Positions 1 to 34,800 of a stretch of DNA of 64,000 bases are shown here, in pieces. The notes beneath the pieces are model-generated. The model saw only the letters and a program-made list of their open reading frames with translations, ran no database searches and was not told where the DNA came from. Source of the stretch: Myxococcota bacterium (GTDB taxonomy: Bacteria; Myxococcota_A; SURF-8; G963677705); assembly GCA_963677705.1 (NCBI GenBank), contig OY782497.1:1900774-1964773 (forward strand), given 5' to 3'. Position numbers and translations under genes: made by a program. Each line of letters begins with the position of its first letter. The first letter of the stretch is position 1.

Positions 1-2
1 AA

Positions 3-260
3 TCCTGCGGTCAGTGTACGCCCTGCCGTGAGGGAACCCATTTCCTGCATCTCATCATCAAACGTTTGGAAGCCGGTCAAGGCACGATGGAAGACATCGA
101 CAAACTCTATCGACTGGCCAACAATATGGAAGGTGCAACCATCTGCCCCTTGGCCGAAGCCGCCGCGTGGCCGATGAAGTCCTTCATTACGAAGTTCCGT
201 GACGAATTTGAAGCCCATGTCACCCTGGGTCGCTGCCCGATGAATCACGCCATCGGCTGA
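3..260 (+). CDS. nuoF: NADH-quinone oxidoreductase subunit F, C-terminal fragment (5' end lies upstream of window)
   Basis: Frame 3 reads ...SCGQCTPCREGT...ICPLAEAAAWP from position 3 and ends at TGA 258-260. This is the 4Fe-4S-binding C-terminus of NuoF. It lies immediately upstream of nuoG. Confidence 0.85.
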   Translation, partial: SCGQCTPCREGTHFLHLIIKRLEAGQGTMEDIDKLYRLANNMEGATICPLAEAAAWPMKSFITKFRDEFEAHVTLGRCPMNHAIG

Positions 261-299
261 TTTTGAACGGCACGCCTTGGCGTGCGGGAGGTTTTTTTG

Positions 300-2225
300 A
301 TGACCGAAACAGTAAAAGTCACCTTCGACGGCGTGGAGTACGAGGTACCCAAGGGACGGACCGTGCTGGAAACGGCCAAAGACCTGGACATCCCCATCCC
401 GTATTTCTGCTGGCACAAGCACCTTTCCGTTTCCGGCAACTGCCGCATGTGCCTGGTCTACATCAGCCCCGGCCCGCCGAAACCGCAGATTGCCTGCGGC
501 ACCTACGTCGCCGACGGCATGACCATTGACACCAAGAGCGAGAAGGTACGCGCCCAGCGGCAAAACGTGCTGGAATTCCTTCTGCTCAACCACCCGCTGG
601 ATTGCCCCGTCTGCGACAAAGCCTATGAGTGCAAGTTGCAGAACTATACCTATAATTATGGCAACGATGCGGGACGGTTTGTAGACATGCACGACCAGAA
701 GCGGGTCTACAAGCGGGAAAATCTGGGGAAGATTTTCACCGAGATGAACCGCTGCATCCATTGCACCCGCTGCGTGCGTTACCTGCGCGAAGTGGCCGGG
801 GAACCGGAGATGCAACGCCTGGAGCGTGGCCACGAGTTGAAGATCGGCACCTGGAAAGAAGCCTTCGAGAGCGATTTCGCCCTTAACGCCGTGGACATCT
901 GCCCCGTGGGTGCTTTGGGAGATCGTAAATTCAATTTCACCACCCGCGTCTGGAACCTTCAACCCACGCCAAGCGTTTGCGGTTCCTGTTCGGTGGGATG
1001 CAACGTCACGGTGGAAAGCTTTGAAGGCGTGGTGATCGACGAAGAAAAACCGGAGAAAATCGTCCGGCTTCGCCCCCGTGAAAACCCGGTGGTCAATGCC
1101 ACCTGGATGTGCGACTACGGTCGTCATCATTTCGATTGGATCAACCAGGATCGCCTGCGTGACATCCGCGTCAACGGCAAAGCCGCGAGCGCCGACGAGG
1201 CGGTGAAAGCCATTGCCAACAACGTGGAGCAGATCGGCAAGGGAAGCTTTGCGCTATCGCTGAACTCCTGGCTGACCACGGAGGAACTCTGGCTCGGTAA
1301 AAAACTGGCCGCCTTGTGGGAGGGTTCCACGCTGGCCTTCGTGCCCGGTTACAACAAGCAAACCGTTTTTGAAGACGTGACCCAAGATGTGCTGCCTGTG
1401 ACCCTGGTTTCCGACGACAAGTCCCCCAACAGCGAGCTATCGCTGAACTCCTGGCTGACCACGGAGGAACTCTGGCTCGGTAAAAAACTGGCCGCCTTGT
1501 GGGAGGGTTCCACGCTGGCCTTCGTGCCCGGTTACAACAAGCAAACCGTTTTTGAAGACGTGACCCAAGATGTGCTGCCTGTGACCCTGGTTTCCGACGA
1601 CAAGTCCCCCAACAGCGAGGGTGGTCGTTTGCTGGGTTTGCCGGAAGGCTCCCAGGAAACCCCGGCGATCCTCAGTCTTATCGACGCAATGGAAAACGGT
1701 TCGGTGCGCGGTCTGGTTATGGTGGGCGATCCCTGCCTGAGCCATCCGGATCTTGATCGCGACCGCCTGCTTGCCACCGTGAAAAAGCTGAGCTGCTTCG
1801 TGTACCTCGGCCCCAATACCAATGAGTTGTCCGACCTGGCGCATATCGTGCTGCCTAGCGCGGCCTATGTGGAAAAACGGGGAAGCCTCATCAACCGCCT
1901 GCACCGCGTGCAGAAACTCCGCCCGGCGCTGCGTTTGATCGGCGATACCGACACGGAATTATCCTGGCTGTCCAAGCTGGGTGCGCAGTTTGAAGACGGT
2001 TTCGGTTTTGAAGACTACAAACCGGCGCTGAATGCCTTGGCCGAAGAGGAAGCCGCGTTTTCCGGCCTGCGCTATGAAGCCCTGGGGCTTCTGGGTGTCA
2101 AGCTCGTTGACGGCAAGGCGGAAGACAAAGCCGATGATCTGCTGAAACTGGAAGCCAAGATCAAAGCCCAGATGCTGCGTCATGCAGCCAGGGACAGTGA
2201 CAAATCCAGCGGTCACGACGCCTAA
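300..2225 (+). CDS. nuoG: NADH-quinone oxidoreductase subunit G (75-kDa Fe-S subunit)
   Basis: MTETVKVTFDGVEYEVPKGRTVLE... is a 2Fe-2S ferredoxin-type N-terminus. Cys clusters CRMCLV, CPVCDKAYEC and CIHCTRCVRY follow. The ATG at 300 is preceded by GGGAGG. The ORF-track start at 282 is GTG. Confidence 0.9.
   Translation: MTETVKVTFDGVEYEVPKGRTVLETAKDLDIPIPYFCWHKHLSVSGNCRMCLVYISPGPPKPQIACGTYVADGMTIDTKSEKVRAQRQNVLEFLLLNHPLDCPVCDKAYECKLQNYTYNYGNDAGRFVDMHDQKRVYKRENLGKIFTEMNRCIHCTRCVRYLREVAGEPEMQRLERGHELKIGTWKEAFESDFALNAVDICPVGALGDRKFNFTTRVWNLQPTPSVCGSCSVGCNVTVESFEGVVIDEEKPEKIVRLRPRENPVVNATWMCDYGRHHFDWINQDRLRDIRVNGKAASADEAVKAIANNVEQIGKGSFALSLNSWLTTEELWLGKKLAALWEGSTLAFVPGYNKQTVFEDVTQDVLPVTLVSDDKSPNSELSLNSWLTTEELWLGKKLAALWEGSTLAFVPGYNKQTVFEDVTQDVLPVTLVSDDKSPNSEGGRLLGLPEGSQETPAILSLIDAMENGSVRGLVMVGDPCLSHPDLDRDRLLATVKKLSCFVYLGPNTNELSDLAHIVLPSAAYVEKRGSLINRLHRVQKLRPALRLIGDTDTELSWLSKLGAQFEDGFGFEDYKPALNALAEEEAAFSGLRYEALGLLGVKLVDGKAEDKADDLLKLEAKIKAQMLRHAARDSDKSSGHDA
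1254..1619 (+). repeat. Perfect in-frame tandem duplication, 2 x 183 bp (61 codons), inside nuoG
   Basis: nt 1254-1436 is identical base-for-base to 1437-1619. Both encode LSLNSWLTTEELWLGKKLAALWEGSTLAFVPGYNKQTVFEDVTQDVLPVTLVSDDKSPNSE. Confidence 0.85.
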
Positions 2226-2245
2226 GGGGCTGAAAGGAAACGACG

Positions 2246-2743
2246 ATGGAAGCGATTTTCTTCTGGGTATTCGCGCTCATCTCCGTAACAGGCGGGTTGA
2301 TGCTGGTGTTTCATAAGAACCCCATCCATTCCGCGCTGAGTCTGGTGCTGACGCTCATCGCGACGGCAGGGCTGTTTGTGGTGCTGCGTGCCGGATTCGT
2401 CGGCGTGTTGCAGGTTTTGGTGTATGCCGGTGCGATCATGGTGCTGTTTGTCTTTGTCATCATGGTGCTTAACCTGCAACGGGAAGAACTGGGCTTGCGC
2501 CGTCATCGCCTGATTAAAGTGATGGGTATCATCCTTGCCTCCGGCTTTGGTTTGAACCTCGCTGCGATGCTCTTCGAATTGCCCACGAAAAAAGGCATTA
2601 CAGACCCTCAAGCGTTGTTCGGCACGGTGGAAGGCGTCGGCGAGTTGGTGTTCACCACCTACGTCGTTCCCTTCGAGGCGCTGTCTCTGCTTCTGCTGGC
2701 TGCCATTGTGGGCGCGGTGGTGATCGGTAAAAAACGCATTTAA
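2246..2743 (+). CDS. nuoJ: NADH-quinone oxidoreductase subunit J
   Basis: 165-aa polytopic membrane protein. [22 protein letters not shown]...[24 protein letters not shown] matches NuoJ/ND6. It starts 20 nt after the nuoG stop. Confidence 0.85.
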
Positions 2744-2786
2744 CGTTCGTTTTCGGAACGCTTTTTTCAGAAAGGGCCATCCTGAC

Positions 2787-3104
2787 ATGAGCTGGCTGAC
2801 CGACATCGGAATTTCTCATTATCTCGCCCTGGCTGCGCTGCTGTTCACCATCGGCATGATTGGGGTGTTGATCCGCAAAAACGGTTTGATTGTGTTCATG
2901 TGCATCGAATTGATGCTCAACGCCGTCAACCTGACCTTCATCGCCTTTGCCAATCAGGTGGGCAATGAGATGGGACACGCCATCGTGTTCTTCATCATGA
3001 CGGTGGCTGCTGCCGAAGCGGCGGTGGGCCTGGCAATCTTTGTCGCGTTGTACCGTGGCAAGGAAACCGTATACGTGGACGAAGCAGACTCGCTTAAGCA
3101 TTAA
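2787..3104 (+). CDS. nuoK: NADH-quinone oxidoreductase subunit K
   Basis: 105 aa. ...[21 protein letters not shown]... is NuoK/ND4L-like. It lies between nuoJ and nuoL. Confidence 0.85.
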
Positions 3105-3171
3105 CCGGACCTGCGAAGCGTAAGCCAACGCACTTTGCAACCGGCTGGCCTTGTACGAGAGGACGATCATC

Positions 3172-5241
3172 ATGGCGCACAGTGAATCTCACGAACCCCA
3201 CGCCGCCGAGAAAATCAATTGGCTTCAGGCGGCCCTGGCTCTTCTGGCCTTGGGACTACTGCTTCTTTTGCTGTTGTCGAAACTGGCCACGGGGGAAACC
3301 GTCTGCGACATCACCCAATGGGTGTTCCTGATCCCCTTGCTTCCTGGTCTGGGCGCGTTCCTGAACGGGGTCTTCAACCGTCGCCTGCCGAAGTTCGTGG
3401 TAAACATCATTGCCATCGGCAGTGTCTGGTCCAGTTTCTTCATCGGCTTGATGCTGTTCATCCAGCTCAAGATGACCGGCGAACCGGTTCACGCGGTGAT
3501 GTACCACTGGATCTTCTCCGACGCGCTGCATTTGAACATTGCCTTCACGCTGGACCAACTCAGCGGTGTGATGGTGCTGGTAGTAACCTTCGTCGGTGGT
3601 CTGATTCACCTCTACAGTGTGGGCTACATGGCCGACGACGAAAGCTATTCCCGCTACTTCACCTACCTGAACCTCTTCACCTTCAGCATGTTGGTGCTGG
3701 TACTGGGCGATTCCATTCCGCTGATGTTCGTCGGTTGGGAAGGCGTGGGCCTCTGCTCCTACCTGCTGATCGGTTTCTGGTTCGATGATCCGGCCAAGGC
3801 CACAGCGGGTAAGAAAGCGTTCATCGTCAACCGTATCGGTGACATGGGCGTGATGATCGCGATGTTCATTCTGTTCTACGCCACCGGCGCGTTGAGCTTT
3901 GCGGGGATTCAGGAAAACGTAGACAAGATCAGCCCGCTGTTGGCCACCCTGGCCTGCCTGGCGCTGTTCCTGGGAGCCACCGGCAAAAGCGCCCAGCTTC
4001 CCCTATACGTCTGGTTGCCCGATGCAATGGCCGGTCCGACACCGGTGTCCGCACTGATCCACGCTGCGACGATGGTTACCGCCGGCGTGTACATGATCGC
4101 CCGCTTGAGCTTCCTCTTCGTGCTTTCCCCGACGGCCATGCTCGTCGTGGCGACCATCGGTGGGTTGACGGCCCTGTTCGCCGCGACCATCGGCCTGTTC
4201 CAGTATGACATCAAGAAAGTACTGGCCTATTCCACCGTCAGTCAGCTTGGCTACATGTTCCTCGCCGTCGGTGTGGGAGCCTTCTCTGCCGGAGTGTTCC
4301 ACCTGATGACCCATGCCTTCTTCAAGGCCTGCCTGTTCCTCGGTTCCGGTTCGGTGATTATGGGAATGCACCACGAGCAGGACATCCGCAAAATGGGTGG
4401 CCTTGCCAAGAAAATGCCGATCACCCGCTGGACCTTCTTCCTGAGTTGCCTGGCCATTGCGGGAATCTTCCCCTTCGCCGGATTCTTCAGCAAGGACGAG
4501 ATCCTCTGGAAAGCCTTCACCACCCATAACATAGTGATCCCCGGTGCCGAATACGTGTTGTACGGCCTGGGTATGCTGGCCGCTTTCTGTACCGCGTTCT
4601 ACATGTTCCGCCTCTATTTCATCACCTTCAGCGGCGAGAACCGTGCGGACAAACACACCCAGGAACACATCAAGGAAAGCCCCTGGACGATGACCGTCCC
4701 CTTGATCATCCTTGCCGGATTCGCGACCATCATCGGCTTTGTGGGTATGCCCCACGTGATGGGTCCGAACCTCTTTGAACACCACCTGGAGCCCGTTCTT
4801 GGCGAAGCGACGAAGGTCATTGCCAGCGCAGCCGGTCATGGGGCGCATCCTTCCGCGGCTCTGGAATGGGGTATGATGGGTGTCAGCCTCGCCGTGGCGG
4901 GTTTGGGCATCGGTCTGGCCTACATGCTTTACGGTGGCGGCAAATTCGTGTTCAAAGAGAACGCCAATTTCTTCTACAAGCTGCTGCGTGACAAATACTA
5001 CGTGGATGAAGGCTACTTCTATGCCTTCGTGCGTCCCCTGGTGAATTTCAGTCAGTTCCTCTGGAAGTTCGTGGACACCTATCTCATTGATGGCTTGCTG
5101 GTTCACGCCTCCAGTTGGACCGTACGTAGCGTGGGCGAGGGACTGCGGCTCTTGCACACCGGAAACGTGCAGCACTACTTGTTTGCCTTCCTGCTTGGCG
5201 TGGTGGCGATCTTCGTCTACCTGCTGCAAGGAACGTGGTAA
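3172..5241 (+). CDS. nuoL: NADH-quinone oxidoreductase subunit L
   Basis: WLPDAMAGPTPVSALIHAATMVTAGVYMIARL is the antiporter-like NuoL signature. The ATG at 3172 follows GAGAGGA. The ORF-track start at 3151 is TTG. Confidence 0.9.
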   Translation: MAHSESHEPHAAEKINWLQAALALLALGLLLLLLLSKLATGETVCDITQWVFLIPLLPGLGAFLNGVFNRRLPKFVVNIIAIGSVWSSFFIGLMLFIQLKMTGEPVHAVMYHWIFSDALHLNIAFTLDQLSGVMVLVVTFVGGLIHLYSVGYMADDESYSRYFTYLNLFTFSMLVLVLGDSIPLMFVGWEGVGLCSYLLIGFWFDDPAKATAGKKAFIVNRIGDMGVMIAMFILFYATGALSFAGIQENVDKISPLLATLACLALFLGATGKSAQLPLYVWLPDAMAGPTPVSALIHAATMVTAGVYMIARLSFLFVLSPTAMLVVATIGGLTALFAATIGLFQYDIKKVLAYSTVSQLGYMFLAVGVGAFSAGVFHLMTHAFFKACLFLGSGSVIMGMHHEQDIRKMGGLAKKMPITRWTFFLSCLAIAGIFPFAGFFSKDEILWKAFTTHNIVIPGAEYVLYGLGMLAAFCTAFYMFRLYFITFSGENRADKHTQEHIKESPWTMTVPLIILAGFATIIGFVGMPHVMGPNLFEHHLEPVLGEATKVIASAAGHGAHPSAALEWGMMGVSLAVAGLGIGLAYMLYGGGKFVFKENANFFYKLLRDKYYVDEGYFYAFVRPLVNFSQFLWKFVDTYLIDGLLVHASSWTVRSVGEGLRLLHTGNVQHYLFAFLLGVVAIFVYLLQGTW

Positions 5242-5283
5242 GAACTTTCAGGCACTAACCGCTAGCTCGATTGGGAACCGCCT

Positions 5284-6906
5284 ATGGCAATTCAAGATTT
5301 TCCCGTATTGACCCTCATCACGATCCTGCCCTTGGTCGGCGCGGTGATGGTGGCCCTGTTGCCCAAAGGGGAGGACGGCGTCGTCAAGACCTTCGCCTTC
5401 ACCTGGTCCACCCTGGTTTTCCTCACCAGTCTGGTGATTTTCGCCGGATTCAACCCCGCCGTGCCGGGGATGCAACTGGTGGACAACCTGTCCTGGATCG
5501 ACGAATTCGGCATTCGTTTCAGCTTGGGCATTGACGGTATCAGCCTCTGGCTGGTGATTCTCACCACCTTCCTGACCCCGGTGGTGGTGCTGGGAGCCTT
5601 CAAGGCCGTGCCGAAGTACATGAAAGGCTTCATGTTCAGCATCCTGCTGCTGGAAACGGCGATGATCGGCACCTTGTTGGCCACCGACATCTTCCTGTTC
5701 TACGTGTTCTGGGAACTGATGCTGATTCCGATGTATTTCCTCATCGGCATCTGGGGTGGTCAGAAACGCCTCTACGCCGCCGTGAAGTTCTTCATCTTTA
5801 CGATGGTCGGCTCCCTGTTGATGCTTCTGGCCCTGATCTATGTCTACTACCAGCACTTCGTGCAGTTCGGCATCTGGTCTACCGACCTCCACGCCTTGCT
5901 TCAGGTGCAGTTCGGCTTGACGGAACAGGTTCTCCTGTTCATCGCCTTTGCCCTGGCCTTCGCGATCAAAGTCCCGATGTGGCCGCTGCATACCTGGTTG
6001 CCAGACGCCCATACCGAAGCGCCGACCGCCGGTTCGGTCATTCTGGCCGGTGTGCTGTTGAAGATGGGAACCTATGGTTTCCTGCGCTTCGCCATTCCTT
6101 TGTTCCCCGTGGCGGCGGCCAAGGCCATGCCGGTAATCGCCGCGCTGGCCGTGGTGGGCATCATCTACGGTGCGCTGGTGGCCTTCGTGCAGAAAGATGT
6201 CAAACGTCTGGTAGCCTATAGCTCCGTGAGCCACCTGGGCTTCGTCATGCTCGGTATTGCCGGTATGACCTTCACCAGCGTGCAGGGTGGTCTGTATCAG
6301 ATGCTGAACCACGGCATCAGCACCGGCGCCTTGTTCCTCGTGGTAGGCATGATCTACGAACGGCGTCATACGCGCATGATTTCCGACTTCGGCGGGCTGG
6401 CGAAGGTGATTCCGCTGTTCGCCACGATGTTCATGATTACCATGCTTTCCAGCATCGGCGTTCCGGGACTGAACGGCTTCGTCGGCGAGTTCCTCATCCT
6501 CACCGGAACCTTCACCAGCCAGAGCCTGCCTTACGCGCAAGTCTGGGTAGTCCTGGGAACCACGGGGGTTCTGCTGGGTGCCGTCTACATGCTGCACATG
6601 TACCAACGGGTGATGTTCGGTCCGGTAACCAAGGACGAAAACAAGGCCTTGAAGGATCTCTCCGTCCGTGAAGTGGCCGTGCTGCTGCCACTGATTCTGT
6701 TGATGTTCGTGATGGGCCTGTTCCCCAATCTCTTCCTGAAATACACGGAAAGCTCCATCCACGATCTTCTGAAAACTTACAACGCCAAGGTGGAACGCTA
6801 TGAACAGCGTGAAGCCTCGTTGTCCGAGCCGCGTCTGGGCGGGGTTCTGGCCGTGGGGCAGAGCGCCACGGATGACACCGAGAACCAAGCCGTTGTTCTT
6901 CGCTAA
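5284..6906 (+). CDS. nuoM: NADH-quinone oxidoreductase subunit M
   Basis: WLPDAHTEAPTAGSVILAGVLLKMGTYGFLRF is the NuoM/ND4 signature. 540 aa. Confidence 0.9.
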   Translation: MAIQDFPVLTLITILPLVGAVMVALLPKGEDGVVKTFAFTWSTLVFLTSLVIFAGFNPAVPGMQLVDNLSWIDEFGIRFSLGIDGISLWLVILTTFLTPVVVLGAFKAVPKYMKGFMFSILLLETAMIGTLLATDIFLFYVFWELMLIPMYFLIGIWGGQKRLYAAVKFFIFTMVGSLLMLLALIYVYYQHFVQFGIWSTDLHALLQVQFGLTEQVLLFIAFALAFAIKVPMWPLHTWLPDAHTEAPTAGSVILAGVLLKMGTYGFLRFAIPLFPVAAAKAMPVIAALAVVGIIYGALVAFVQKDVKRLVAYSSVSHLGFVMLGIAGMTFTSVQGGLYQMLNHGISTGALFLVVGMIYERRHTRMISDFGGLAKVIPLFATMFMITMLSSIGVPGLNGFVGEFLILTGTFTSQSLPYAQVWVVLGTTGVLLGAVYMLHMYQRVMFGPVTKDENKALKDLSVREVAVLLPLILLMFVMGLFPNLFLKYTESSIHDLLKTYNAKVERYEQREASLSEPRLGGVLAVGQSATDDTENQAVVLR

Positions 6907-6927
6907 TTTAGGCACAGGGTATCCACG

Positions 6928-8442
6928 ATGACAAACGTGAACCTTTCCGAATTCATTCATCTTGCGCCCATCCTGATTCTCAGCGCGTTCGCGTTGGCCG
7001 TGCTTCTGCTGGATGTCTTCAGCGACCACGCGCCGGATCGTAAACGCATGGGCTATCTCACCCTTCTGGGCCTGGGCCTTGCCGTTCCGGTATTGCTCTA
7101 CCAACTGGGCATGGATGGCGCAAAGCCGCTGTTTTCCGGAATGATCGCTTTAGACGGCTTCGGCACCTACTTCAACCTGCTCTTCGTAACGGGTTCAATG
7201 GTCACGGTGCTGTTGGCCATGACCTATTTTGAGGAACACGGCCTGCATCGCGGGGAATTTTACGCGCTGGTGCTCTTCGCCACGGTGGGGATGATGCTCA
7301 TGGGTATGAGTACCGACCTCATCAGCTTCTTCGTAGGTCTGGAATTGATGTCGATCAGCATCTACGTGCTGGCCGGGTTCATGCGCCACGATCCGCAATC
7401 GGTGGAAAGCAGCCTGAAGTACTTCCTGATGGGAGCCTTCGCCACCGGCTTTCTGATGATGGGCGTGGCCTATCTCTACGGACTGGCCGGGAGTACCAAC
7501 CTCGCGATGGTCGCTCAAGCTCTGGCGGGCAAAGTCAGCGTCGCTCAGACTCTGGGTGGAAATGCAGCCAGCCTTTACGGCCATATCGGGATGTTCTTCA
7601 TCGTCATCGGCTTCGGCTTCAAGGTGGCCTCGGTGCCCTTCCACATGTGGACGCCGGATGTCTATCAGGGCGCGCCGACACCGGTGACCGCGTTCATGGC
7701 CGCGCTGGTCAAAGCGGCGGCCTTCGGTGGGTTCGTGCGCATCTTCGCCACCGCGCTTTACAGCCTGAAGAGCGGAAGCTTCGACTGGTATTCCATCCTC
7801 TGGGTGCTGGCCGTGTTGACCATGACCTGGGGTAACGTCGTTGCTCTGACCCAAGACAACATCAAGCGGATGCTGGCCTATAGCTCCATTGCTCACGCCG
7901 GTTACCTGCTCATCGGTTTCCTGGCTATTTCCAAGGCGGGAAGCGCCGTCAGCGCTATTCTGTTCTACCTGGCCGCCTATACGGTGATGAACATGGGTGC
8001 CTTCGCCGTGGTGATCCTCGCCGGGCGTCGCGGGGATGAAAACCAGGATCTCACCGGCAAGGGCTGGGCGGGCTTCGGACGTCGCAATCCCGGTTTGGGG
8101 GCGGCGATGACCCTCTTCATGCTCAGCCTGGCCGGGATTCCCGGAACCATCGGCTTCATGGGTAAATTCTACGTCTTCCGCGCCGCCATTGAGGAACACC
8201 TCTATGTGCTGGCTCTGCTGGGCGTACTGAACAGCCTGATCAGCGTGTTTTACTACCTGCGCGTGATTCTGGTGATGTTCATGAAGGATTCCGAGGCCGA
8301 CAGCGAACCGGCCAGTGCCTTGCGCTTCGCCACACCGGGAACCCTGGCGGTGATCCTGATGACTGTGTTGACCGTGGGCTTGGGCCTTCTGCCCTCCGTC
8401 CTGCTGCAACTGACCGACTCCGCCTCAAAAACCCTGTTCTAA
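6928..8442 (+). CDS. nuoN: NADH-quinone oxidoreductase subunit N
   Basis: 504-aa antiporter-like membrane protein. FHMWTPDVYQGAPTPVTAFMA matches the NuoN/ND2 motif. It is the last gene of the nuo block. Confidence 0.85.
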   Translation: MTNVNLSEFIHLAPILILSAFALAVLLLDVFSDHAPDRKRMGYLTLLGLGLAVPVLLYQLGMDGAKPLFSGMIALDGFGTYFNLLFVTGSMVTVLLAMTYFEEHGLHRGEFYALVLFATVGMMLMGMSTDLISFFVGLELMSISIYVLAGFMRHDPQSVESSLKYFLMGAFATGFLMMGVAYLYGLAGSTNLAMVAQALAGKVSVAQTLGGNAASLYGHIGMFFIVIGFGFKVASVPFHMWTPDVYQGAPTPVTAFMAALVKAAAFGGFVRIFATALYSLKSGSFDWYSILWVLAVLTMTWGNVVALTQDNIKRMLAYSSIAHAGYLLIGFLAISKAGSAVSAILFYLAAYTVMNMGAFAVVILAGRRGDENQDLTGKGWAGFGRRNPGLGAAMTLFMLSLAGIPGTIGFMGKFYVFRAAIEEHLYVLALLGVLNSLISVFYYLRVILVMFMKDSEADSEPASALRFATPGTLAVILMTVLTVGLGLLPSVLLQLTDSASKTLF

Positions 8443-11461: not shown

Positions 11462-11538
11462 TGGTACCGCCTATCTGATTTGAACAGATGACCTCCTGAT
11501 CCACAGTCAGGCGCTCTAACCAACTGAGCTAAGGCGGC
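11462..11538 (-). tRNA. tRNA-His (anticodon GUG); no encoded G-1, G1.U72 wobble pair, A73, genomically encoded CCA
   Basis: The reverse complement folds as a canonical cloverleaf. Acceptor GCCGCCT/AGGCGGT, D-arm GCTC-AGTTGGTTA-GAGC, anticodon arm CCTGA-CUGUGGA-TCAGG, T-arm ATCTG-TTCAAAT-CAGAT, then ACCA. The base 5' of G1 is C. Confidence 0.75.
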
Positions 11539-13089: not shown

Positions 13090-13200
13090 TTAAGAATCGT
13101 CATCCTCCGCGCAGGCGGAGGATCCAGTCAACTGAGTTTACTCTGGATTCCCGCCTTCGCGGGAATGACAAAATGGATGCTTCGTCTAACTTATTGTTGC
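13090..13200. repeat. Pair of REP-like hairpin elements (GTCATYCYCCGCGNAGGCGGRGRATCCAG) in inverted orientation plus shared flank
   Basis: 13099-13127 reads gtcatcctccgcgcaggcggaggatccag. 13143-13169 reads ctggattcccgccttcgcgggaatgac, its reverse complement. About 75 bp (13125-13200) matches the reverse complement of 22630-22705. Confidence 0.6.
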
Positions 13201-13295
13201 TGTGTTAATAAGCCACCTGCTTGCTTAACCCTCCTGCCTTGCTATAATCGGAAGGCCATGTTGTTTCGTCACCTTTCTAGGAAGGAAGAAGCCTG

Positions 13296-14948: not shown

Positions 14949-16319
14949 TCAATGGTACATCTCATAGACAGATTCCATTGGCCCTGCAACACCTCGAATT
15001 GCACATTCACTGCGTTCAAGATACAAATAATCTCCGCCATCTGTCGTTGCATCACAAAAGGATGACCCTATGGCTCCTGGTATTGCGGGACTCCCATCTC
15101 CTCCATAATATATGTCGCGTTGATATGGTTCTTCATCTCCAGCAATCTTCCATAGTTTTTGACTCTCTTCATCAATGCTAAAAACATCGGCTTGTGATCC
15201 TTCGTAAAACATCACACCAACATCAGTCATAAAGAACTGGTTAGGGTAGTAATACGCTTTTGTGTCAAATGACATTCCATCATATGGACATCCACGAGAA
15301 TCGTTTCCGAACGGGCAATCGTTCATGGCCCCAGGACCACTTATAGCTTTCATTTTCATAAGCATGTCATCATCACTGTAATCAACATGATAGATATGAC
15401 CGCCAAATCCAGCATAACCGCTATTATCATCAAATATTTGCAGGCTATAAATAAGATCATAATTTCCCACATCAATGCACTCACCAGCATCATCATACAT
15501 GCATATACCTATTTCTTCACGCGAACCATCCAATGTCAGCCTAGATACCCCGCGACCTGTTGTAGCAATAATTTTCTCATCATCGATATAACTAACTATA
15601 TAGTATGACTTAACAGAAGACGGATCGTCTCTCGTATATTTTTCACATACATAGTCATCAACACGCTTACTGTCCAAACCATACAAAACAACACATGTAT
15701 ACAACGAGTCATCGTTATCATAACCATCATCGTTTTCATCGACATAAACATTCAATGGGATGAGCATGTTTCGCTTATATATTTTTGCGATCCCAGCAGT
15801 GAACAACTTGCATCCATTATCAATTCCGAATTGCATTCCATATACGTAGTATTCTTCAAATCCACCATCCTCTGCAAGAAATACCATACGAAACACCACG
15901 TTATCGGAAATAGAAGAAGATAGATCATCCGGCCCCAAGACCATCACTGCGTTGTTCAGATCCGGATCCCAAACCATACTACGGACTGTACAATCCTTTG
16001 TATTATTCTCCACAGGTAGAAAACCATAGGTAAACAACTCTCCCGTCTCTACGTCATCCCTCCATAGAGTCTTTTTCTCCTTGGCCCACCAAGGGTTAAA
16101 AGGACGACCGTCATCAACAATCGTGTAATCACCGTAGTCTTCTGTAGAGTTATCGTATAGGCCAGATTCTCCTTCGCAGATCACAAGCTCTGCGGGTTCC
16201 GGGGTCTGGGAGTTGTCTTCCTGTCGGCATCCGGCAGAAAGCATCAACAGAACAACAAGCGTGATGGTGTGATATGCAAACCGCGTCATGGTCGTGTCAT
16301 CCTTTCCAGACTGATTCAT
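14949..16319 (-). CDS. Hypothetical lipoprotein (markedly AT-rich gene)
   Basis: 456-aa ORF. The N-terminus ...MTRFAYHTITLVVLLMLSAGCRQED has an L-S-A-G-C lipobox. The product is D/Y/N-rich and acidic. GC content is visibly far below neighbouring genes. No recognisable family. Confidence 0.55.
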   Translation of the reverse strand: MNQSGKDDTTMTRFAYHTITLVVLLMLSAGCRQEDNSQTPEPAELVICEGESGLYDNSTEDYGDYTIVDDGRPFNPWWAKEKKTLWRDDVETGELFTYGFLPVENNTKDCTVRSMVWDPDLNNAVMVLGPDDLSSSISDNVVFRMVFLAEDGGFEEYYVYGMQFGIDNGCKLFTAGIAKIYKRNMLIPLNVYVDENDDGYDNDDSLYTCVVLYGLDSKRVDDYVCEKYTRDDPSSVKSYYIVSYIDDEKIIATTGRGVSRLTLDGSREEIGICMYDDAGECIDVGNYDLIYSLQIFDDNSGYAGFGGHIYHVDYSDDDMLMKMKAISGPGAMNDCPFGNDSRGCPYDGMSFDTKAYYYPNQFFMTDVGVMFYEGSQADVFSIDEESQKLWKIAGDEEPYQRDIYYGGDGSPAIPGAIGSSFCDATTDGGDYLYLERSECAIRGVAGPMESVYEMYH

Positions 16320-20006: not shown

Positions 20007-22544
20007 ATGGGAACTTTGCTAGTTGTGGATGACAGTCGTACCATCCGTCAAGCGGTACAAATGACCTTTCAGAATACGGGTATCCAGGTTTTGGAGGCGG
20101 ACAACGTTCCGCAAGGCCTGGACATTCTTCGTCAACAGAAACCAGACATGGTGTTGGTGGATCTTGTCATCCAGGGTGACGCGGAAGCCGGCTTTTCCTT
20201 TGCCGAACAAGCCTTGAGCGGAAGCCAGACAGGCCGTATTCCGATCTTCATTCTCTCTGGAAAGAACCGCAACGTAGACAAGAAGCGGGCGAAACTGATC
20301 GGTGCCAAGGTGTTTATCAAGCCCTTCGACACCCAGGATCTCATCGACCTGGCAGAGCTGACCATTGCGGAAAGCGATCAGAAGCAAAGTTCGGCTCCCG
20401 CTCCGGGTTCCCCAACTCAAAACGCGATGGAAGCCGCTTCCGCGCCTCGCATGACCATGCAGATGAGCGCTTTCAACCCCGATGCCATTGCGGCACCGGC
20501 AGACCCCTTCGGTGTTCCTGCGGCCCCAAAACCCACAGCGAGCATCCCAGCAGCAGCTCCGATGCCCGATCCTTTTGCCGCTCCGCCTCAGCAGGCTCCG
20601 GCAGCAGACCCCTTCGCGGCTGCGCCTCAACAGACTCCGGCGGCAGATCCTTTCGCCGCTCCGCCTCAGCAGGCTCCGGCAGCAGACCCCTTCGCGGCTG
20701 CGCCTCAACAGGCTCCGGCAGCAGATCCCTTCGCCGCTGCACCTCAACAGGCTCCGGCGGATGATCCCTTCGCTTCTGCACCTCAACAGGCTCCGGCAGC
20801 AGATCCCTTCGCCGCTGCACCTCAGCAGGCTCCGACAGCAGACCCCTTCGCCGCTGCACCTCAACAGGCTCCGGCGGAAGATCCTTTCGCTGCTGCACCT
20901 CAGCAGGCTCCGGCAGCAGACCCCTTCGCCGCTGCACCTCAACAGGCTCCGGCGGAAGATCCTTTCGCTGCTGCACCTCAGGCCGACCCGGTGGAGATGG
21001 ATGGCGACGATCTGGAGATTATGGATGACTTGGAGGAAATCGAAGAAGTCGAAGCTATCGAACCGGAATTGGAACAAACCAATACCCCGGTGGAATTCGA
21101 CGAAGGCGATTTGGACCTGATCGAAGACGATCTGGAAGAGCCGGATTACCAAGACATGGTCACCACGGATGACGTTGTGGCCGAAGCCGCTCCGGCAGCA
21201 GACCCCTTCGCGGAAGACGACCCCTTCGGCCCTCTACCGGACCCGCCCTCTACGCAGAAAGCGGAACCGATCGCCGATCCCTTCGCCGGATTGGATCAGG
21301 CTCCTATTGAAGAACCCCCTTTGGAGGTTGCTCCCAAAGACAGCCCCAAAGATCCCTTTGCCGGATTGGCCGATCCCGGCTTTGACGACGAGCCGTTGGA
21401 AACCCACGCCAAAGCTCCCAACGATCCCTTCGCCGGACTGAACGAACCGGAACCCGAACCGGAGATTCCGGAGGTAGAGGCCGAGCCGGAGGAATTGGAC
21501 GCCGTCGAGTTGGAAGAGGAACCCGCCGAGGCGATGGAGATTGAACAGATCGACCCGGAACCCATTCCGGACATTGACCTGGAACCCGGCCCAGACGCAG
21601 AGTTGGAGGTCGAAGCACTGCCGGAATTGGAAAGCGTGGATCTGGATGAAGACGCCGCGGAACCCATCCCCACGGAGTCCGAGCAACCCGTTCCCAACGT
21701 CCCTATTCCCACCCCGGAACCGGTTGATGTACCGGAACAATCCGCTCCTCTGGAAGTGGAAAGCCAAAGCATGGCTGAAGCGCAGTTCTTCGCCACCCAG
21801 ACCCAGACGGTTAAGGCTCCCGTGCTGACCGATCCCAAAGCCCAGCCTGTGGAACCGGTTCCGGCAGAACCCATTCAGGAATCCGCAAGCGATGCTCTGG
21901 AGTATGAGAGTCCCGTTCGCATCACCGACGCCAGCCTGGAAGCGCATGGCGATGGTGACAATGGTGACTTTGTGGATGCTGCTCAGATCATGGCCCTGAT
22001 GCGTAAAGTCCTGCGTGAAGAACAAGCCCAGGCTCCGGCAATGGCCGCCCAGGCCGCTTCCGCGCCTTCCGCTGGAGTGGACATGAATGAACTACGCGAT
22101 GTCGTCCGCAGCGTTGTTCGCGACGAAATGAAAGCCAACCAGACGGCTCCTGCCGCGCAGGCTGTGGATACCGTGGCTCTCTCTGCGGCCTTGTCTCAAA
22201 CCGTGAAGGCCGAACTGGCCAAAATGCCTGCACCTCAGGCTGCGGCCCCCGTGGCTTCAGACAAACTCTCGGATGGCCAGATGCGCACCATCGTCAAGGT
22301 GGTGGCTGAAACCGTTCATTCCGTGGTGCAGGGTGAAATGACCAATGCCCTGGCGAAACTGCCTGCCCCCAGTGCCTCTGCCGGTGGCGGCGGCGGCGCG
22401 GATCTGACGACCATCCGTCAAGCCATTCAAGAAGAGATTGGCCAACTGATGAGCCAGAAGATTGAAGCCATTGCCTGGGAGGTGGTTCCCAAGATGGCGG
22501 AAACCATCCTCAAGCGGGTTATCGCCAAGCAACAGCAAGGCTAA
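20007..22544 (+). CDS. Response regulator (N-terminal receiver domain) with long Pro/Ala-rich tandem-repeat and poly-acidic regions
   Basis: MGTLLVVDDSRTIRQAV...DMVLVDLVIQGD...KPF is a CheY-like receiver with phospho-acceptor Asp. Then ~10.8 tandem DPFAAAPQQAPAA repeats, a D/E-rich stretch with further DPF(A/G) motifs, and an Ala-rich C-terminal region. 845 aa. Confidence 0.8.
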   Translation: MGTLLVVDDSRTIRQAVQMTFQNTGIQVLEADNVPQGLDILRQQKPDMVLVDLVIQGDAEAGFSFAEQALSGSQTGRIPIFILSGKNRNVDKKRAKLIGAKVFIKPFDTQDLIDLAELTIAESDQKQSSAPAPGSPTQNAMEAASAPRMTMQMSAFNPDAIAAPADPFGVPAAPKPTASIPAAAPMPDPFAAPPQQAPAADPFAAAPQQTPAADPFAAPPQQAPAADPFAAAPQQAPAADPFAAAPQQAPADDPFASAPQQAPAADPFAAAPQQAPTADPFAAAPQQAPAEDPFAAAPQQAPAADPFAAAPQQAPAEDPFAAAPQADPVEMDGDDLEIMDDLEEIEEVEAIEPELEQTNTPVEFDEGDLDLIEDDLEEPDYQDMVTTDDVVAEAAPAADPFAEDDPFGPLPDPPSTQKAEPIADPFAGLDQAPIEEPPLEVAPKDSPKDPFAGLADPGFDDEPLETHAKAPNDPFAGLNEPEPEPEIPEVEAEPEELDAVELEEEPAEAMEIEQIDPEPIPDIDLEPGPDAELEVEALPELESVDLDEDAAEPIPTESEQPVPNVPIPTPEPVDVPEQSAPLEVESQSMAEAQFFATQTQTVKAPVLTDPKAQPVEPVPAEPIQESASDALEYESPVRITDASLEAHGDGDNGDFVDAAQIMALMRKVLREEQAQAPAMAAQAASAPSAGVDMNELRDVVRSVVRDEMKANQTAPAAQAVDTVALSAALSQTVKAELAKMPAPQAAAPVASDKLSDGQMRTIVKVVAETVHSVVQGEMTNALAKLPAPSASAGGGGGADLTTIRQAIQEEIGQLMSQKIEAIAWEVVPKMAETILKRVIAKQQQG
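20568..20990 (+). repeat. Coding tandem repeat, 39-bp unit x ~10.8 (DPFAAAPQQAPAA) inside response-regulator gene
   Basis: Near-identical 39-nt units (gatcccttcgccgctgcacctcaacaggctccggcagca and variants) are repeated head-to-tail. Individual units differ by single-codon substitutions (A/P, A/T, A/E, A/D). Confidence 0.85.
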
Positions 22545-22599: not shown

Positions 22600-22629
22600 G
22601 CCAGCCTACCCGTCTTTGTTATGAACCCG

Positions 22630-22705
22630 GCAACAACAAGTTAGACGAAGCATCAACTTTGTCATTCCCGCGGAGGCGGGAATCCAGATTAAATTCAGTA
22701 GACCG
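22630..22705. repeat. Second copy of the REP-like element (inverted relative to 13125-13200)
   Basis: caacaacaagttagacgaagcatcaactttGTCATTCCCGCGGAGGCGGGAATCCAGattaaattcagtag. An adjacent hairpin gtcgggcaaggaatttgcccgac lies at 22706-22728. Confidence 0.6.
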
Positions 22706-28800: not shown

Positions 28801-31800
28801 CGGATCACGATCCGGAATGGTCACCGCGTTGACATCGGTAAGGTACGCGCTGGTGTGACCCAGGTTATCGCGAGCCTGAATACGGAAGCGGTAGGTCGTT
28901 CCCACATTCAGGGAGGGATAATAATATTCGGTTGCGGAGCCATCCACGATCTGGCGTTGATAGGCCGCATCCCAGGTACCGTCGTCATCAACATCCACAT
29001 CCAGGAAGATGTCGTTCACACCGGCGTAGGCATCGGTGCAAGCCGGCCAACGCAGGGTGACACCGAAACCGCTGTCACTGTGATGGTTGGTCAGCGGACC
29101 GGCACAATCCGGACCCTGGGTATCCATCGTGATGTGGTCGATCGCCGCTGCGGCAGTGGTGTTACCACCGGCATCGCGGAACCAGGCATAGACCGTCTTC
29201 ACGCCATCGCCGCCACCGGCCAGGGTGTGCGCCATCGTTGATGTGCCACCGGCTCCGAAGTCCTGCCAGTCTCCGCCGCTGGGTGCGCTAGAATCGTTGC
29301 GCACGGCAACCTGGAGGTTCTGCCAGGGATCGTTGGCCGTCAAGGTCAAGGTGACGTTCAGGCTGGTCGTGTAGGGATCGTTGTTGTTAATGACCACCGT
29401 GGCATCGCTTGGCGGAGTGGTATCCACGATCACCTGACCGATCTCGCTTTGAGGACCGAGGTTATTCACGTTATCGTAGGGAACCACCTTGATGTACCAG
29501 GTGCCATCGGCCAGAGCCGCCGTGTGCTGATAGAAGGCATTGTCGCTCCAACCATCAAACACGCCGCTGCCGAAGCCCGCATCCTGGGACCAGAACACAT
29601 GGTAGGCCTGAGCATCACGCACTCCGGAGAGAGCATCCGTCGTGGCCGTCCAGGTCCAGGTTGGTGTGTTGTCCGCCGTGCGCATGGTTCCGGTCGTCGG
29701 GGCGGGAGCCACCTGGTCCGGACCGGTCTGATCGACGTAGGTGAAGTCCGAGGCAAAGAGGGAAATGTTACCCGCGTTGTCACGGACCCAACCATACACG
29801 GTACGCGCTCCCTCACCACCGATCAGAGTGTGGTTCAACAGAGAGCTTCCATCCCACGAACTGAAGGCACCGTAACCCGGCTCCGTCGGATCATTGGACA
29901 GATAGACGTAGTCGCATCCCTGACCGGAAACCGTCAGGCCCACGGTCACGTTGCTGGACGCATTGTAGTTGTTGCCGTTGTAATAATCCGGCGAAATGGC
30001 CAGGGTATCAATGATGCAACCGGAGATGTCGATTTCCACCTCACCATAGGTGCTGCTCATCATCGTATTGCCCACGGCATCGTAAGCTTCCACCTTCAGG
30101 TACCAGGTCCCTTCATCCAGGTCATCCAGGTGGGTGAAGCTGTTGGTATCCGTCCACGCGGAGTAGGTTTCACCCAGCGGGGATTGCGACCAGTAGACAC
30201 GGTAGACGTTGGACAATGGCATACCGCTTTCGGCATCCGTAGAGGGCGTCCAGGTCCAGGACGGTGTCTGATCGTTGGTCGGAGACATCCCCGTTACCGC
30301 GATACCGGACGGTTCCGTCGGCGGCGTTTTGTCGATCCAGAACGGACCGAGGGTCGCCGTCTCATCCGACCAGTTCCCGGCTTCATCCACGGCACGCAAG
30401 TGCGCGTAGTAGTTCTGGCCGGTGGTGGCAAATGTACAATTGGTCGTAATCGCCGAGTCGTTGAGATCCAACTCGGTGCGGGTGATCTCTCCGGCGTCCT
30501 CGTTGCAGACCACGGCGTAACCCAGGAGTCCGGCGTGTGCATCCACCTTGGTGGCGCGACGGAGGCTCAGGTTATCCAGAAGCAACTCGGTTCCGTTGGA
30601 GAACCCGGCATTGTTGAATACACGGAAGTAGAAGCTCGGATCGCCATAGCCATTCTGCACCGTGACATAACCGGTGTAGTGACCATGAGGCAGGCCCAGG
30701 GAGCAATCCAGGTTGTCACTGCGGGTCGGGCGGCTTTCCGCTTCGTTGGCCATCACACCATCGGCGATGAGATCCGGATGCCCATCAACCGAACCGTCAC
30801 GGAAGAGCAGTTTCCATCCCGCGCCTTCCGGCGGGGTATCCATGCAGTAGTAGTCGAACTCGAAGACATAGCTATCACCGGCTTTCAGGTTTTCAACCTG
30901 CTTGACCATCATCAGGTGTTCTTCACCACCGTCAGCATTGAGATACCAGCTATGACCCCCGAAGAAGCCATCGGTGACACTATCCATTCCCACGGCATCG
31001 TTACGGAACGAGCAGAAGCCGTCGGCGCAGTTGGTGTCTTCGGTCCAGCCTTCGGCCATCGCCCCGACACCCTTCTCAAAGCGTCCGTTCTCAAAGCCGT
31101 TGGCGCTGTTGCCGTCAAGATCCGTCGGCGTGGCAGCAACGTAGTAGGAGGTTTCCGCATCAACGGCTGGATTCCAACCGAAGATCACGTTGGTGTCACC
31201 ACTCCACGCGCCGGTCAGATGACCGCTGGTGGTCGCCAGATCCGTTGCCAGACCCGGAGCGCGATGGTCGTCATAGGTCAGGTCGCTGGTCCAGGTGCGG
31301 TTAGCCACGGCAATCTTGAGGTTGCGGGCATCACCCGTACCGGCACTGTAGGTCGCACCAGCCAGGGTATAGGATGTTTCCGCACCGGTACGTTCATCAT
31401 ACAATTCGCCGATCAGGCTGTCGTCGATGAAGCAACGCACGCGGTTACCTTGAGCCTCAAAGCGCATGGAATAAGAAGCCTGCCCGCTTACCAGAGACTT
31501 GAAGCGCTTCAGCGCATCGGACACGCCGGACGGCGTTTCTTCCAAGCCGGTATCCTGGTACATCAGATAGGCCATGCCGGAGTCCTGATCCACCAGGCAG
31601 GAGTAATGGGCGCCGGTGCTGTCTTGACGAAGCGAGAAGCCCAGGCTTCCGCCGTTGATGTTCAGTACGCTTTCCAAGGCTACATCCGGGCTTTCCACCG
31701 TGGTCGTGAATCCAGGCATGGGTTCATACAGACGGAAGTCCACACCGGTATCGTTGCGGCCATCGCCGCCACCAAGCCATTCCATCTGCGCCAAACGATC

Positions 31801-34800
31801 GGCGACCACATCCATGTGGCTTTGCACCACAAGGTGATTGGCGGGCCAACCGAACAGAGCCGAGGCGAAGCCGCTGCTGGCGGTGGGATTGTAGTACGCC
31901 GCCGCCGGGCTGTTCACCACCAGAGCCAAACCTTTGGAGACGAAGGAGATAACAACCTTACCTTCCACCGCTTCATAGGTGTTGACCAGGGTACCATCGG
32001 CCTGGTAGAGGCTGACCGTCGCGTCCTCACGCATCGTGGCCAAGGAAACCCATTCGGCATCCATCGGCAGCATGAAGGTGGAGGACAAGAGGTTGCTCGG
32101 AATGGCCGGAGCCATTTCCGGCGTTTCAAACTCAGAGACGCGAGTCATACCGAAGGCGCTGAAGATCGCACCATCGCGACCGGCCAGACGCAGGGCGTAG
32201 CCGTTACCATACATATCCCCCATGCCTGTGGCCATGCTGACCACCTCACCGGCCACACAGTTCTGGCTGGCGACTTCTGTACCCGAAAGAGCATAGGCGG
32301 CAACCACACCGTCTTTCAGACAGACGGCGCGGACGGCATCCCCTTCAACGGTGAGGAAGTCACGACCGGCAGGAGCCACCGGGCTGCGACTGGAGCCGTC
32401 TTCCGTGCCGGTATAAACCAAGAGCGGCATGTCGGACTTGACGATGATCGCGCTTTCACGGGTCGGAGGAGAACCGGCATTGATGGTCAGACGCAGGTGA
32501 CGATCCGCACCCAGGGCGTGGACTTCATCCGTCGCGATACGACCCATGCCTTCTACGTAACGATCAATCCGAATCTCTTCATCCTCGGCTTGCGGTCCAA
32601 GAGCGAGAATGTCAATCACCGTCGGCAGACCCATCGGGCGAGCATCGGCAGGCACCGCAAAGCGGGTTCCGGCGAAGCTGTCCGGGATGAGTTCCCCTTC
32701 GGTCACACCGCTGTCGGAGTGCAGCGCGAAGGGAGCCGAACCGGCAATGCGTGTCCAGGGGTTCGGTCCAGCGTTCAAGGTCGCGTTTTCACCGCGGTTG
32801 ATCATGAACTGCTGTTCCCCGTTGGAGACGGTGTTGTTGTCCGCCAAGGACACCACCTGAATGGACGAACCGCTGCTCAGATCCTGACTGACATAGTACA
32901 TGGAATAGCCACCATCCAGCGGATAGAGCGCGCCGGTGGTCTCTCCCATGTCCAGATCATAAGCCAGGCTGGCCAGAGCTTCCGAGCCGTTCCAGGATTG
33001 AGACTCAATGTAGCCATCGCTTTGCAGCGGCAGGCTGCGGTCATACCCGGTGGCGGCCAGGACCGGACCGAAGTCGGTGGGTTCCAAGCCCACCAGATAG
33101 GCTTTCACTTGGAAGCGGTACAACTGGTTGTCATCCAAGCCGGTGACCAGGAAGCCTTCGTTATCTGCTCCGTTCCACTCGTCACGGGAACGCCAGTCTT
33201 CCACCGCAGTGTTGAAGGTGCCCGTGAAGTAGTTGAGATACAGACCGGAATCGACATCCTGAATGGCATACGTCACGGCGTTGCTGTTGCCATCGGCACG
33301 GTGGATAAACAGGCGAATTGCCGCTTCACCATCACCGAGGATGGTACCGTCACCGGTGTAAACCGCGATGGGTTCAAACGGTGTAGAGACGGTTTGGACA
33401 TCCACCTGACCAATGCCGCTTTCCACGGTATTGTTGGCCATGTCGCGAGCCATGACTTTGGCGTACCAGATTCCCGTGGTCAACTCCGCCGAGTGGGTGT
33501 ATTCGTTGGAAAGCAGATCCACCGAATAGACATCCGTGATGAAGTTGGAATCTTTGGACCAGAACAGGGTGTAGGGACGAACGGAGTTCAAACCGCTGTC
33601 CGCATCGCCGGAAGCCGTCCAACTCCAATGCGGAGTCTTGCTTCCCGTCTGGGCTTCGTCCGGTACCGGAGTCCCCGGAGCCGGGAAGGGAGCGGTGATA
33701 TCAAGGAAGGTGCCATCGGAAAGCATTTCGCTTTCGTTACCCGCTTCATCACGGAACACGGCGTACACCGTCTTGGGTCCATTGCCACCCACAAAGGTAT
33801 AGCTGGCCGTCGTGGCAAAGGCTTGATAGGCACCCAGCGTTTCACCGAACCTCATTTCCGTGTTAGATTCATCCACCGTAAGATACAAAGTCACAGTCTG
33901 CTGATTGACGTAATCCGGACCCGGAGCCACGGAAGAGGCAACCACAATGCTTCCGAACGGAGGACGGGTATCCACGGTGAAGCTGGTTTCCAGGCTGGTG
34001 TTGTTGCCCGCACCATCATAGGCGGTGACACGGACATACCATAGGCCATCAGCCAGCGCCGTGGGGAAGGTGAAGCTGGTTTCCGTGGTGTACTGGTTGT
34101 TCGGCGTCGTGGTCAGCTCTTCAACCGTTTGCGCCCAGCGCACGCGGTAGGTGTTGGTCGGACGCGGTCCGCAGAGCGCATCCACCATCGCCGGCCAACT
34201 GATTGTCGGAGTGCTGTCATTGGTCGGATCGACCAAGGCGATGGGACCGGCAAAGGTAGGAGCCTGACGGTCAAGAATGATCGTATCACTCACCGAAGCC
34301 GATTCGTTCCCCGCCAGATCGTTCATTTTGAAGAAGACCGTGCGGGTGCCGTCCTGATCGTCCAGGTAGACGCTGCTCATGATCGTCGAGGCTGTACGCC
34401 AAGACTGCCAGGAGGCATCATCTTCCGGGCTGTAGGCCATCCGGTAGGGAGAACCGGTGTAGGTCTGGCGGCTGACATTAGACAACACCGCCGTGCAGGC
34501 TGCCCCATTGTTCAATTCGTAGGAAGTAACCACCGGCGCAGTCGTATCCACCAGCACAGTACCCGTCGAAGACCAGTCACTGACGTTACCCACTTTGTCT
34601 ACGGCACGCACGCGCAGGTAATGGGTGACACCCGGTTCAGGCAGACTGTTCAGAGCCGTGGCATGGGTGAAGCTTCCGTTCTGGGTTTCCGGGCTGGGAG
34701 CATTCACAAAGATCTGCGTTGTACCGCCACCTTGCGGCCACCATTCCACTTCATAGGCATTGGTTTCCGCCAAGCCGCTTCCGGCATCATTGGCGAAGGA

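Follow-up and report, generated by a model that had tools for sequence, protein, structure and literature searches.

An in-frame tandem duplication of 61 codons in a short-form nuoG gene, known from a single assembly

The DNA analysed here is a stretch of 64 kb (the window) that opens with a run of complex I genes on the forward strand. Its start cuts nuoF, the gene for the 51-kDa subunit, of which the 3' end is present (1–260, +; TGA at 258–260). Window positions 1–1436 align to positions 5702–7137 of a contig from a conspecific strain (L001), on which the gene at 4687–5961 carries the Complex1_51K and NADH_4Fe-4S domains and ends at the base that maps to window 260. A nuoG-like gene follows at 300–2224 (+), and behind it lie nuoJ (2246–2743), nuoK (2787–3104), nuoL (3172–5241), nuoM (5284–6906) and nuoN (6928–8442), all on the forward strand, intact and colinear with the conspecific strain, with matches to Oxidored_q3, Oxidored_q2 and Proton_antipo_M across 2246–8442. 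The gene order nuoE-nuoF-nuoG-nuoJ-nuoK-nuoL-nuoM-nuoN is the same in the window, on the conspecific contig (including L007) and in a relative from the Sedimentisphaerales (L002). In all of these (for the window, 1–8442) the cluster lacks nuoH and nuoI between nuoG and nuoJ, and it also lacks nuoA-D upstream; the remaining complex I subunits must be encoded elsewhere.

The ORF at 300–2224 is read without a stop into a protein of 641 amino acids, which shortens to 580 when the duplication described below is taken out. Its Pfam matches are Fer2_4, NADH-G_4Fe-4S_3, Fer4_Nqo3, Molybdop_Fe4S4 and a partial Molybdopterin match confined to profile positions 244–340. The N-terminal [2Fe-2S] ferredoxin-like domain, which holds cluster N1b, is present (Fer2_4, 4e-15; Fer2, 1.7e-08), as are the [4Fe-4S] sites N5 and N4 (PF10588 NADH-G_4Fe-4S_3, 2e-16; PF22117 Fer4_Nqo3, 1e-22). 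The ligands of N1b (C37, C48, C51 and C66), of the His-Cys3 site N5 (H98, C102, C105 and C111) and of the Cys4 site N4 (C152, C155, C158 and C201) are invariant in 116 homologues, and all Fe-S ligands are in place in the window protein. The C-terminal part matches PF04879 and PF00384, giving the molybdopterin-oxidoreductase-like domain and the overall fold of NuoG in a form shorter than in the solved NuoG proteins. Among NCBIfam models the best is TIGR01973 (NuoG), whose alignment extends through residue 347; it scores 403.4 bits with the duplicated protein and 405.5 bits with the single-copy protein of the conspecific strain, and neither reaches the equivalog cut-off of 470.05 bits. As the single-copy protein falls short as well, the low score belongs to the short-form clade and is not an effect of the duplication. 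An AlphaFold2 model of the single-copy protein (pLDDT 90.8, pTM 0.91) was compared with the PDB by Foldseek, and the top matches were all complex I 75-kDa/Nqo3/NuoG chains, with E-values of 1e-33 to 1e-39 and query-normalised TM-scores of 0.67–0.77.

We conclude from the domain models, the Fe-S ligands, the fold and the gene cluster that the gene encodes a short-form NuoG (580 amino acids without the duplication); the initial annotation had named the gene nuoG, a reading upheld by the Pfam and NCBIfam matches, by Foldseek and by the position between nuoF and nuoJ. The protein shares with NuoG, Nqo3 and NDUFS1 the N1b 2Fe-2S cluster, the His-Cys3 site N5, N4, an extra Cys4 site of the N7 type and a molybdopterin-like domain without cofactor, and its gene is likewise placed after nuoE-nuoF and before nuoJKLMN. 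It departs from them in its length (580 residues, against 666–905 in solved bacterial chains), in scoring below the TIGR01973 cut-off (403–406 bits against 470) and in the 61 duplicated residues, which are found in the window allele alone.

Within this gene, Tandem Repeats Finder reports one array at 1253–1619, with a period of 183, 2.0 copies, 100% matches, 0% indels and a score of 734. A repeat search and direct string comparison agree that 1253–1435 and 1436–1618 are the same 183 bp without a mismatch. The array is 367 nt long, that is, 2 x 183 + 1, and the extra base is a G that stands at 1253, 1436 and 1619 and is the sole microhomology (1 nt). In codon register the copies lie at 1254–1436 (+; codons L319–E379) and 1437–1619 (+; codons L380–E440). 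The first is identical to the single copy of the conspecific strain, and the second is the one that MAFFT aligns with the homologues and that takes the native position in the AlphaFold2 model. The novel junction at 1435–1437 (+) has one shared G between AGCGA and CTATCG and joins PNSE to LSLN in the protein; its sequence occurs once in the 64-kb window, against none expected from shuffled sequences, and the junction-specific tryptic peptide of the duplicated protein is SPNSELSLNSWLTTEELWLGK. The pair is the only perfect repeat of at least 50 nt within the 64-kb window, and a perfect repeat of 183 nt cannot have arisen by chance. With a unit of 3 x 61 nt, copies placed head to tail and an uninterrupted ORF, this is an in-frame internal tandem duplication. 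The initial annotation had described just such a perfect 183-bp duplication at 1254–1619, adding 61 residues; its coordinates are exact in codon register, the identity is indeed 100%, and L319–E379 recurs as L380–E440 in the 641-residue translation.

To place the two-copy state among relatives, the 641-residue protein was compared with the public record, in which an identical protein (P0001) has one member on one contig of 5.18 Mb, evidently from the genome of the window itself. Because this record carries the same 641 residues, the duplication is not an artefact of window extraction. The next protein, P0002, has 580 amino acids and a single copy of the unit and is encoded on the 4.08-Mb contig of the conspecific strain (ENA ERZ21831104 ctg97512l). 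This contig is 99.2–99.9% identical to the window at the nucleotide level over 13.1 kb, and all differences in that span amount to 89 substitutions, one 1-bp indel directly after the nuoN stop, and the 183 bp. In nuoG itself the two strains differ by two substitutions only (window 388 and 564), both non-synonymous, and there is no mismatch across 565–2237. As both substitutions fall outside the duplicated unit, each window copy equals the conspecific single copy. NuoJ and NuoK are identical between the strains, and NuoL and NuoM have one change each.

Codon 30 of nuoG (387–389) encodes Asp in the window and Gly in the conspecific strain and in 100 of the 116 homologues, so the window carries a derived G30D. 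The divergence of nuoG between the two strains (2 differences in 1.7 kb) is far below that of nuoL (about 0.9%), which suggests, from this contrast in sequence, mosaic recombination between them.

The next relative, P0003, has 80% amino acid identity and 580 residues with a single copy, and comes from a Sedimentisphaerales MAG of the phylum Planctomycetota; this MAG was also the nearest entry (80% amino acid identity) in a scan of GTDB species representatives, a set that does not contain the window's species. The remaining 114 aligned homologues are all single-copy, and adding the window protein to the 116-homologue alignment opens exactly 61 more columns. A scan of JGI metagenome contigs yielded no relatives and no instance of the exact junction; no second independent sample in that scan carries it. 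Given that the conspecific strain, P0003 and the 114 other homologues are single-copy, the two-copy state is derived and private to one assembly. The initial annotation had left the choice between a very recent duplication or an artefact and an older, tolerated insertion common to relatives, to be decided by the length of NuoG in close relatives. At 641 residues in the window against 580 in P0002 and P0003, that comparison fits the former, as do all other aligned homologues, and refutes the latter, all relatives examined being single-copy.

The position of the unit in the protein was read from the single-copy AlphaFold2 model and the homologue alignment. L319–E379 comprises the second half of a strand (317–322), a helix (327–339), a strand (344–348), a loop with a short helix (365–368) and the start of a helix (378–383), so that one breakpoint interrupts a beta-strand and the other coincides with a helix start. 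The 10-residue blocks across 311–400 have pLDDT values of 94–98, as in ordered core. Near-invariant columns in the unit are 322 (97% S; N in the window's clade), T326 (96%), E328 (100%), L369 (91%), D373 (97%), P376 (97%) and N377 (100%), and G380 (99%) comes directly after it; the columns in the unit rank among the best conserved in the C-terminal half. From what is known of the molybdopterin-oxidoreductase fold, we take the unit to be the first beta-alpha-beta in the Rossmann-like subdomain, which comes after the Fe4S4 domain. The extra residues had been thought to lie in a linker between the Fe-S N-terminal domain and the molybdopterin-like domain; the pLDDT values, the near-invariant columns and a TIGR01973 alignment running through 347 place them in ordered core instead. 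Positions 350–359 in the unit are gaps in 59–98% of homologues, and on this alignment they are a clade-specific, indel-tolerant surface loop.

The duplicated protein would thus carry two copies of a core beta-alpha-beta-loop element. This element belongs to the first Rossmann-like subdomain in the molybdopterin-like domain, which lacks a cofactor. A tandem duplication of the form A-B-B-C may equally be viewed as a circular permutation of B inserted anywhere within B. Because the insertion can be assigned to any point in the unit, the chain can form a single native element and loop out the 61 surplus residues; one permissive site would suffice for the native core to be kept, and the loop at 350–359 is the likely one. 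Since this likely extrusion site is indel-tolerant, NuoG with the duplication probably still folds. In the AlphaFold2 model of the duplicated protein the remaining fold is kept, with copy 2 native and residues 322–380 looped out below pLDDT 50, and pTM is 0.84 compared to 0.91 for the single-copy model. This is a weak and biased indication of tolerance, since it is copy 2 to which the homologues are matched in the input alignment. The Fe-S relay, within the N-terminal ~280–300 residues, would be unaffected. We expect the two-copy allele to be neutral to mildly deleterious or destabilising, and unstable; there is no evidence of an adaptive role or gain of function.

In order to consider how the duplication could have formed, the breakpoints were located in the ancestral sequence, as represented by the conspecific contig. 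There we found no direct repeat at 183-nt spacing and no convincing hairpin, only weak matches at chance level. Given this lack of repeats and hairpin, a one-step template switch or illegitimate join is indicated: a single replication template-switch or slippage, or an end-joining-like event, would have re-copied 183 bp at 1 nt (G) of microhomology. Slippage between pre-existing repeats was rejected, since the ancestral sequence holds no 183-nt-spaced direct repeat. A target-site duplication would be far shorter than 183 bp, a phase-variation repeat array would have more than two copies, and a repeat-protein module does not fit a unit that is core enzyme sequence and single-copy in all relatives; these were also rejected. 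In E. coli, template switching that does not depend on RecA precisely excises perfect tandem repeats of 101–787 bp located within a gene (PMC7145654). Recombination or template switching between the perfect 183-bp repeats of nuoG would likewise restore the 580-residue wild type exactly, and because copy loss does so, the two-copy allele is expected to be unstable. By our reasoning it should, without selection, be short-lived. Perfect identity alone limits the age only loosely, and this instability is the stronger argument for youth.

On balance, the sequence comparisons lead us to favour, with some reserve, a genuine, very young and strain-private internal tandem duplication of 61 codons in a short-form nuoG, made in one step and unstable. 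A real allele is modestly favoured because the unit is in frame, for which the chance is 1/3, as for a variant that passed selection. The chief competing explanation, to which we give somewhat less than an even chance, is that the unit is single in the organism and was written twice by the assembler or in post-processing, for example through a false duplication in the graph of a long-read metagenome, through failure to trim an overlap where contigs were joined or at a circularisation point that was later rotated, or through a minority path in the consensus. An error of this kind would account for copies that differ neither from each other nor from the conspecific single copy, and for the presence of the allele in exactly one public record (P0001, one member on one contig). 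It would also account for breakpoints that interrupt a beta-strand and a helix in a conserved domain, as from a process blind to structure; an artefact would give such a placement, in packed core with breakpoints in a strand and at a helix start, as readily as a mutation would. The name of the conspecific contig, ctg97512l, is presumably in the naming style of metaMDBG, and this counts in the same direction; it concerns that contig and not the window's own. False duplications are a documented error class: long-read metagenome assemblers emit direct-repeat duplications that no read supports, and metaFlye and metaMDBG were the most error-prone of them, with the most clipping errors (bioRxiv 10.1101/2025.04.22.649783). 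Against such an error, the 366-bp region lies within every long read, and because any long read spans it, copy number is normally read directly. The surroundings are clean, with one 1-bp indel and no other structural difference from the conspecific contig over 13.1 kb, there is no further perfect repeat of at least 50 nt in the 64 kb, and the unit length is a multiple of 3, which an artefact would give by chance in one case out of three.

Further explanations accept the allele as real and ascribe more to it. That it prevails in a natural population with complex I still functional, as a natural case in which a respiratory enzyme has absorbed the duplication of a packed beta-alpha-beta core element of 61 residues, we regard as very unlikely. 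More doubtful still is a selected, reversible modulation of complex I, in which the function of NuoG or of complex I would be reduced or changed, for instance in fermentative or anaerobic growth, and in which copy loss at high frequency serves as a genetic switch. Perfect tandem repeats do revert precisely and frequently (PMC7145654), the two-copy allele reached the consensus of the assembled population, and the window NuoG also carries the derived G30D, all of which is circumstantial; but the duplication recurs in no relative, the site has no repeat architecture that would predispose it to recurrent duplication, and drift, hitch-hiking or an artefact better explain a single occurrence. The least probable of all, in our estimate, is an older, tolerated or useful insertion whose identity was kept by gene conversion and which relatives lost secondarily. 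Precise loss by recombination is easy, so a single copy in one conspecific strain is no strict guide to when the event took place, and the in-frame status and intact downstream operon are compatible with retention. Yet only one copy is present in the conspecific strain, in the relative at 80% identity and in the other 114 aligned homologues, and the two window copies lack any difference in 183 bp. For this history the extra copy would have to be lost independently several times, or the copies homogenised continuously, within one lineage.

In-frame internal tandem duplications are known from FLT3-ITD in human leukaemia, from short examples in bacterial PBP3 and OmpK36, and from engineered T4 lysozyme. 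The nuoG case resembles this class in being head-to-tail, a multiple of three in length and frame-keeping, with minimal microhomology at the junction, and in that close relatives lack it and that it can be reversed when one copy is lost. It differs in that the known functional duplications are recurrent and selected, and most bacterial ones are of a few codons, whereas that in nuoG is a single occurrence of 61 codons in a packed core. It also resembles the false duplications of long-read assemblies (bioRxiv 10.1101/2025.04.22.649783), as a perfect direct repeat in one assembly only, the conspecific assembly being single-copy. Those were described as 'long direct repeats' and found via read clipping and coverage drops, whereas the nuoG case is known from the assembly alone and the region around it has no other assembly anomalies. 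In either event, the nuoG duplication is a mutation of an ordinary kind, or else an error, in a protein family that is already known, and it reveals no new system or mechanism. If real, it would be a protein-length polymorphism caught extremely young on the evolutionary clock, and would add modestly to what natural cases show about the tolerance of a conserved Rossmann-like core to duplicated segments; with a working complex I, it might further supply material from which the domain could be elaborated, or gain and loss of the copy might act as a reversible switch that tunes complex I in an anaerobic planctomycete. If an artefact, a false duplication now stands in public protein databases as a 641-residue 'NuoG' (P0001), which calls for caution among users of the MAG and offers a test case for assembly-validation tools. 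The main practical value lies in a flag on the public 641-residue protein and in a test case for read-level validation.

Several other features were observed in the window. A giant ORF at 22813–49614 (-) encodes 8,933 amino acids with diverged internal repeats and Pfam matches to Big_13, Y_Y_Y, Ig_J, 3-keto-disaccharide-hydrolase (LamG-like) and a C-terminal FGE-sulfatase; the long opposite-strand ORFs inside it, at 29449–34044 and 34129–38934, have no Pfam matches and look like antisense shadows. The ORF at 20007–22544 encodes an 845-residue protein whose sole Pfam domain is an N-terminal response-regulator receiver. It contains, at 20568–20981 (+), an imperfect 39/78-bp tandem array of about 10.6 copies with 85–91% identity, encoding Pro/Ala/Gln-rich repeats of roughly 13 residues.

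An 85-nt inverted repeat pair, 88% complementary, lies at 13127–13211 and 22619–22703, 9.4 kb apart, and contains the hairpin motif ATTCCC-N8-GGGAAT (CTGGATTCCCGCCTTCGCGGGAATGACAAA). It has no Rfam match and may represent an intergenic repeat that is dispersed, or a MITE-like element. It brackets an FGE-sulfatase-domain gene, a low-GC ORF, a Ser/Thr kinase and the repeat-bearing response regulator. A low-GC patch at 14949–16319 (-), with 43% GC compared to about 57% elsewhere, coincides with an ORF of 456 amino acids that has no Pfam match, and this patch may have been horizontally acquired. A tRNA-His (GTG) at 11462–11538 (-) is the only Rfam/ARAGORN match in the 64-kb window.
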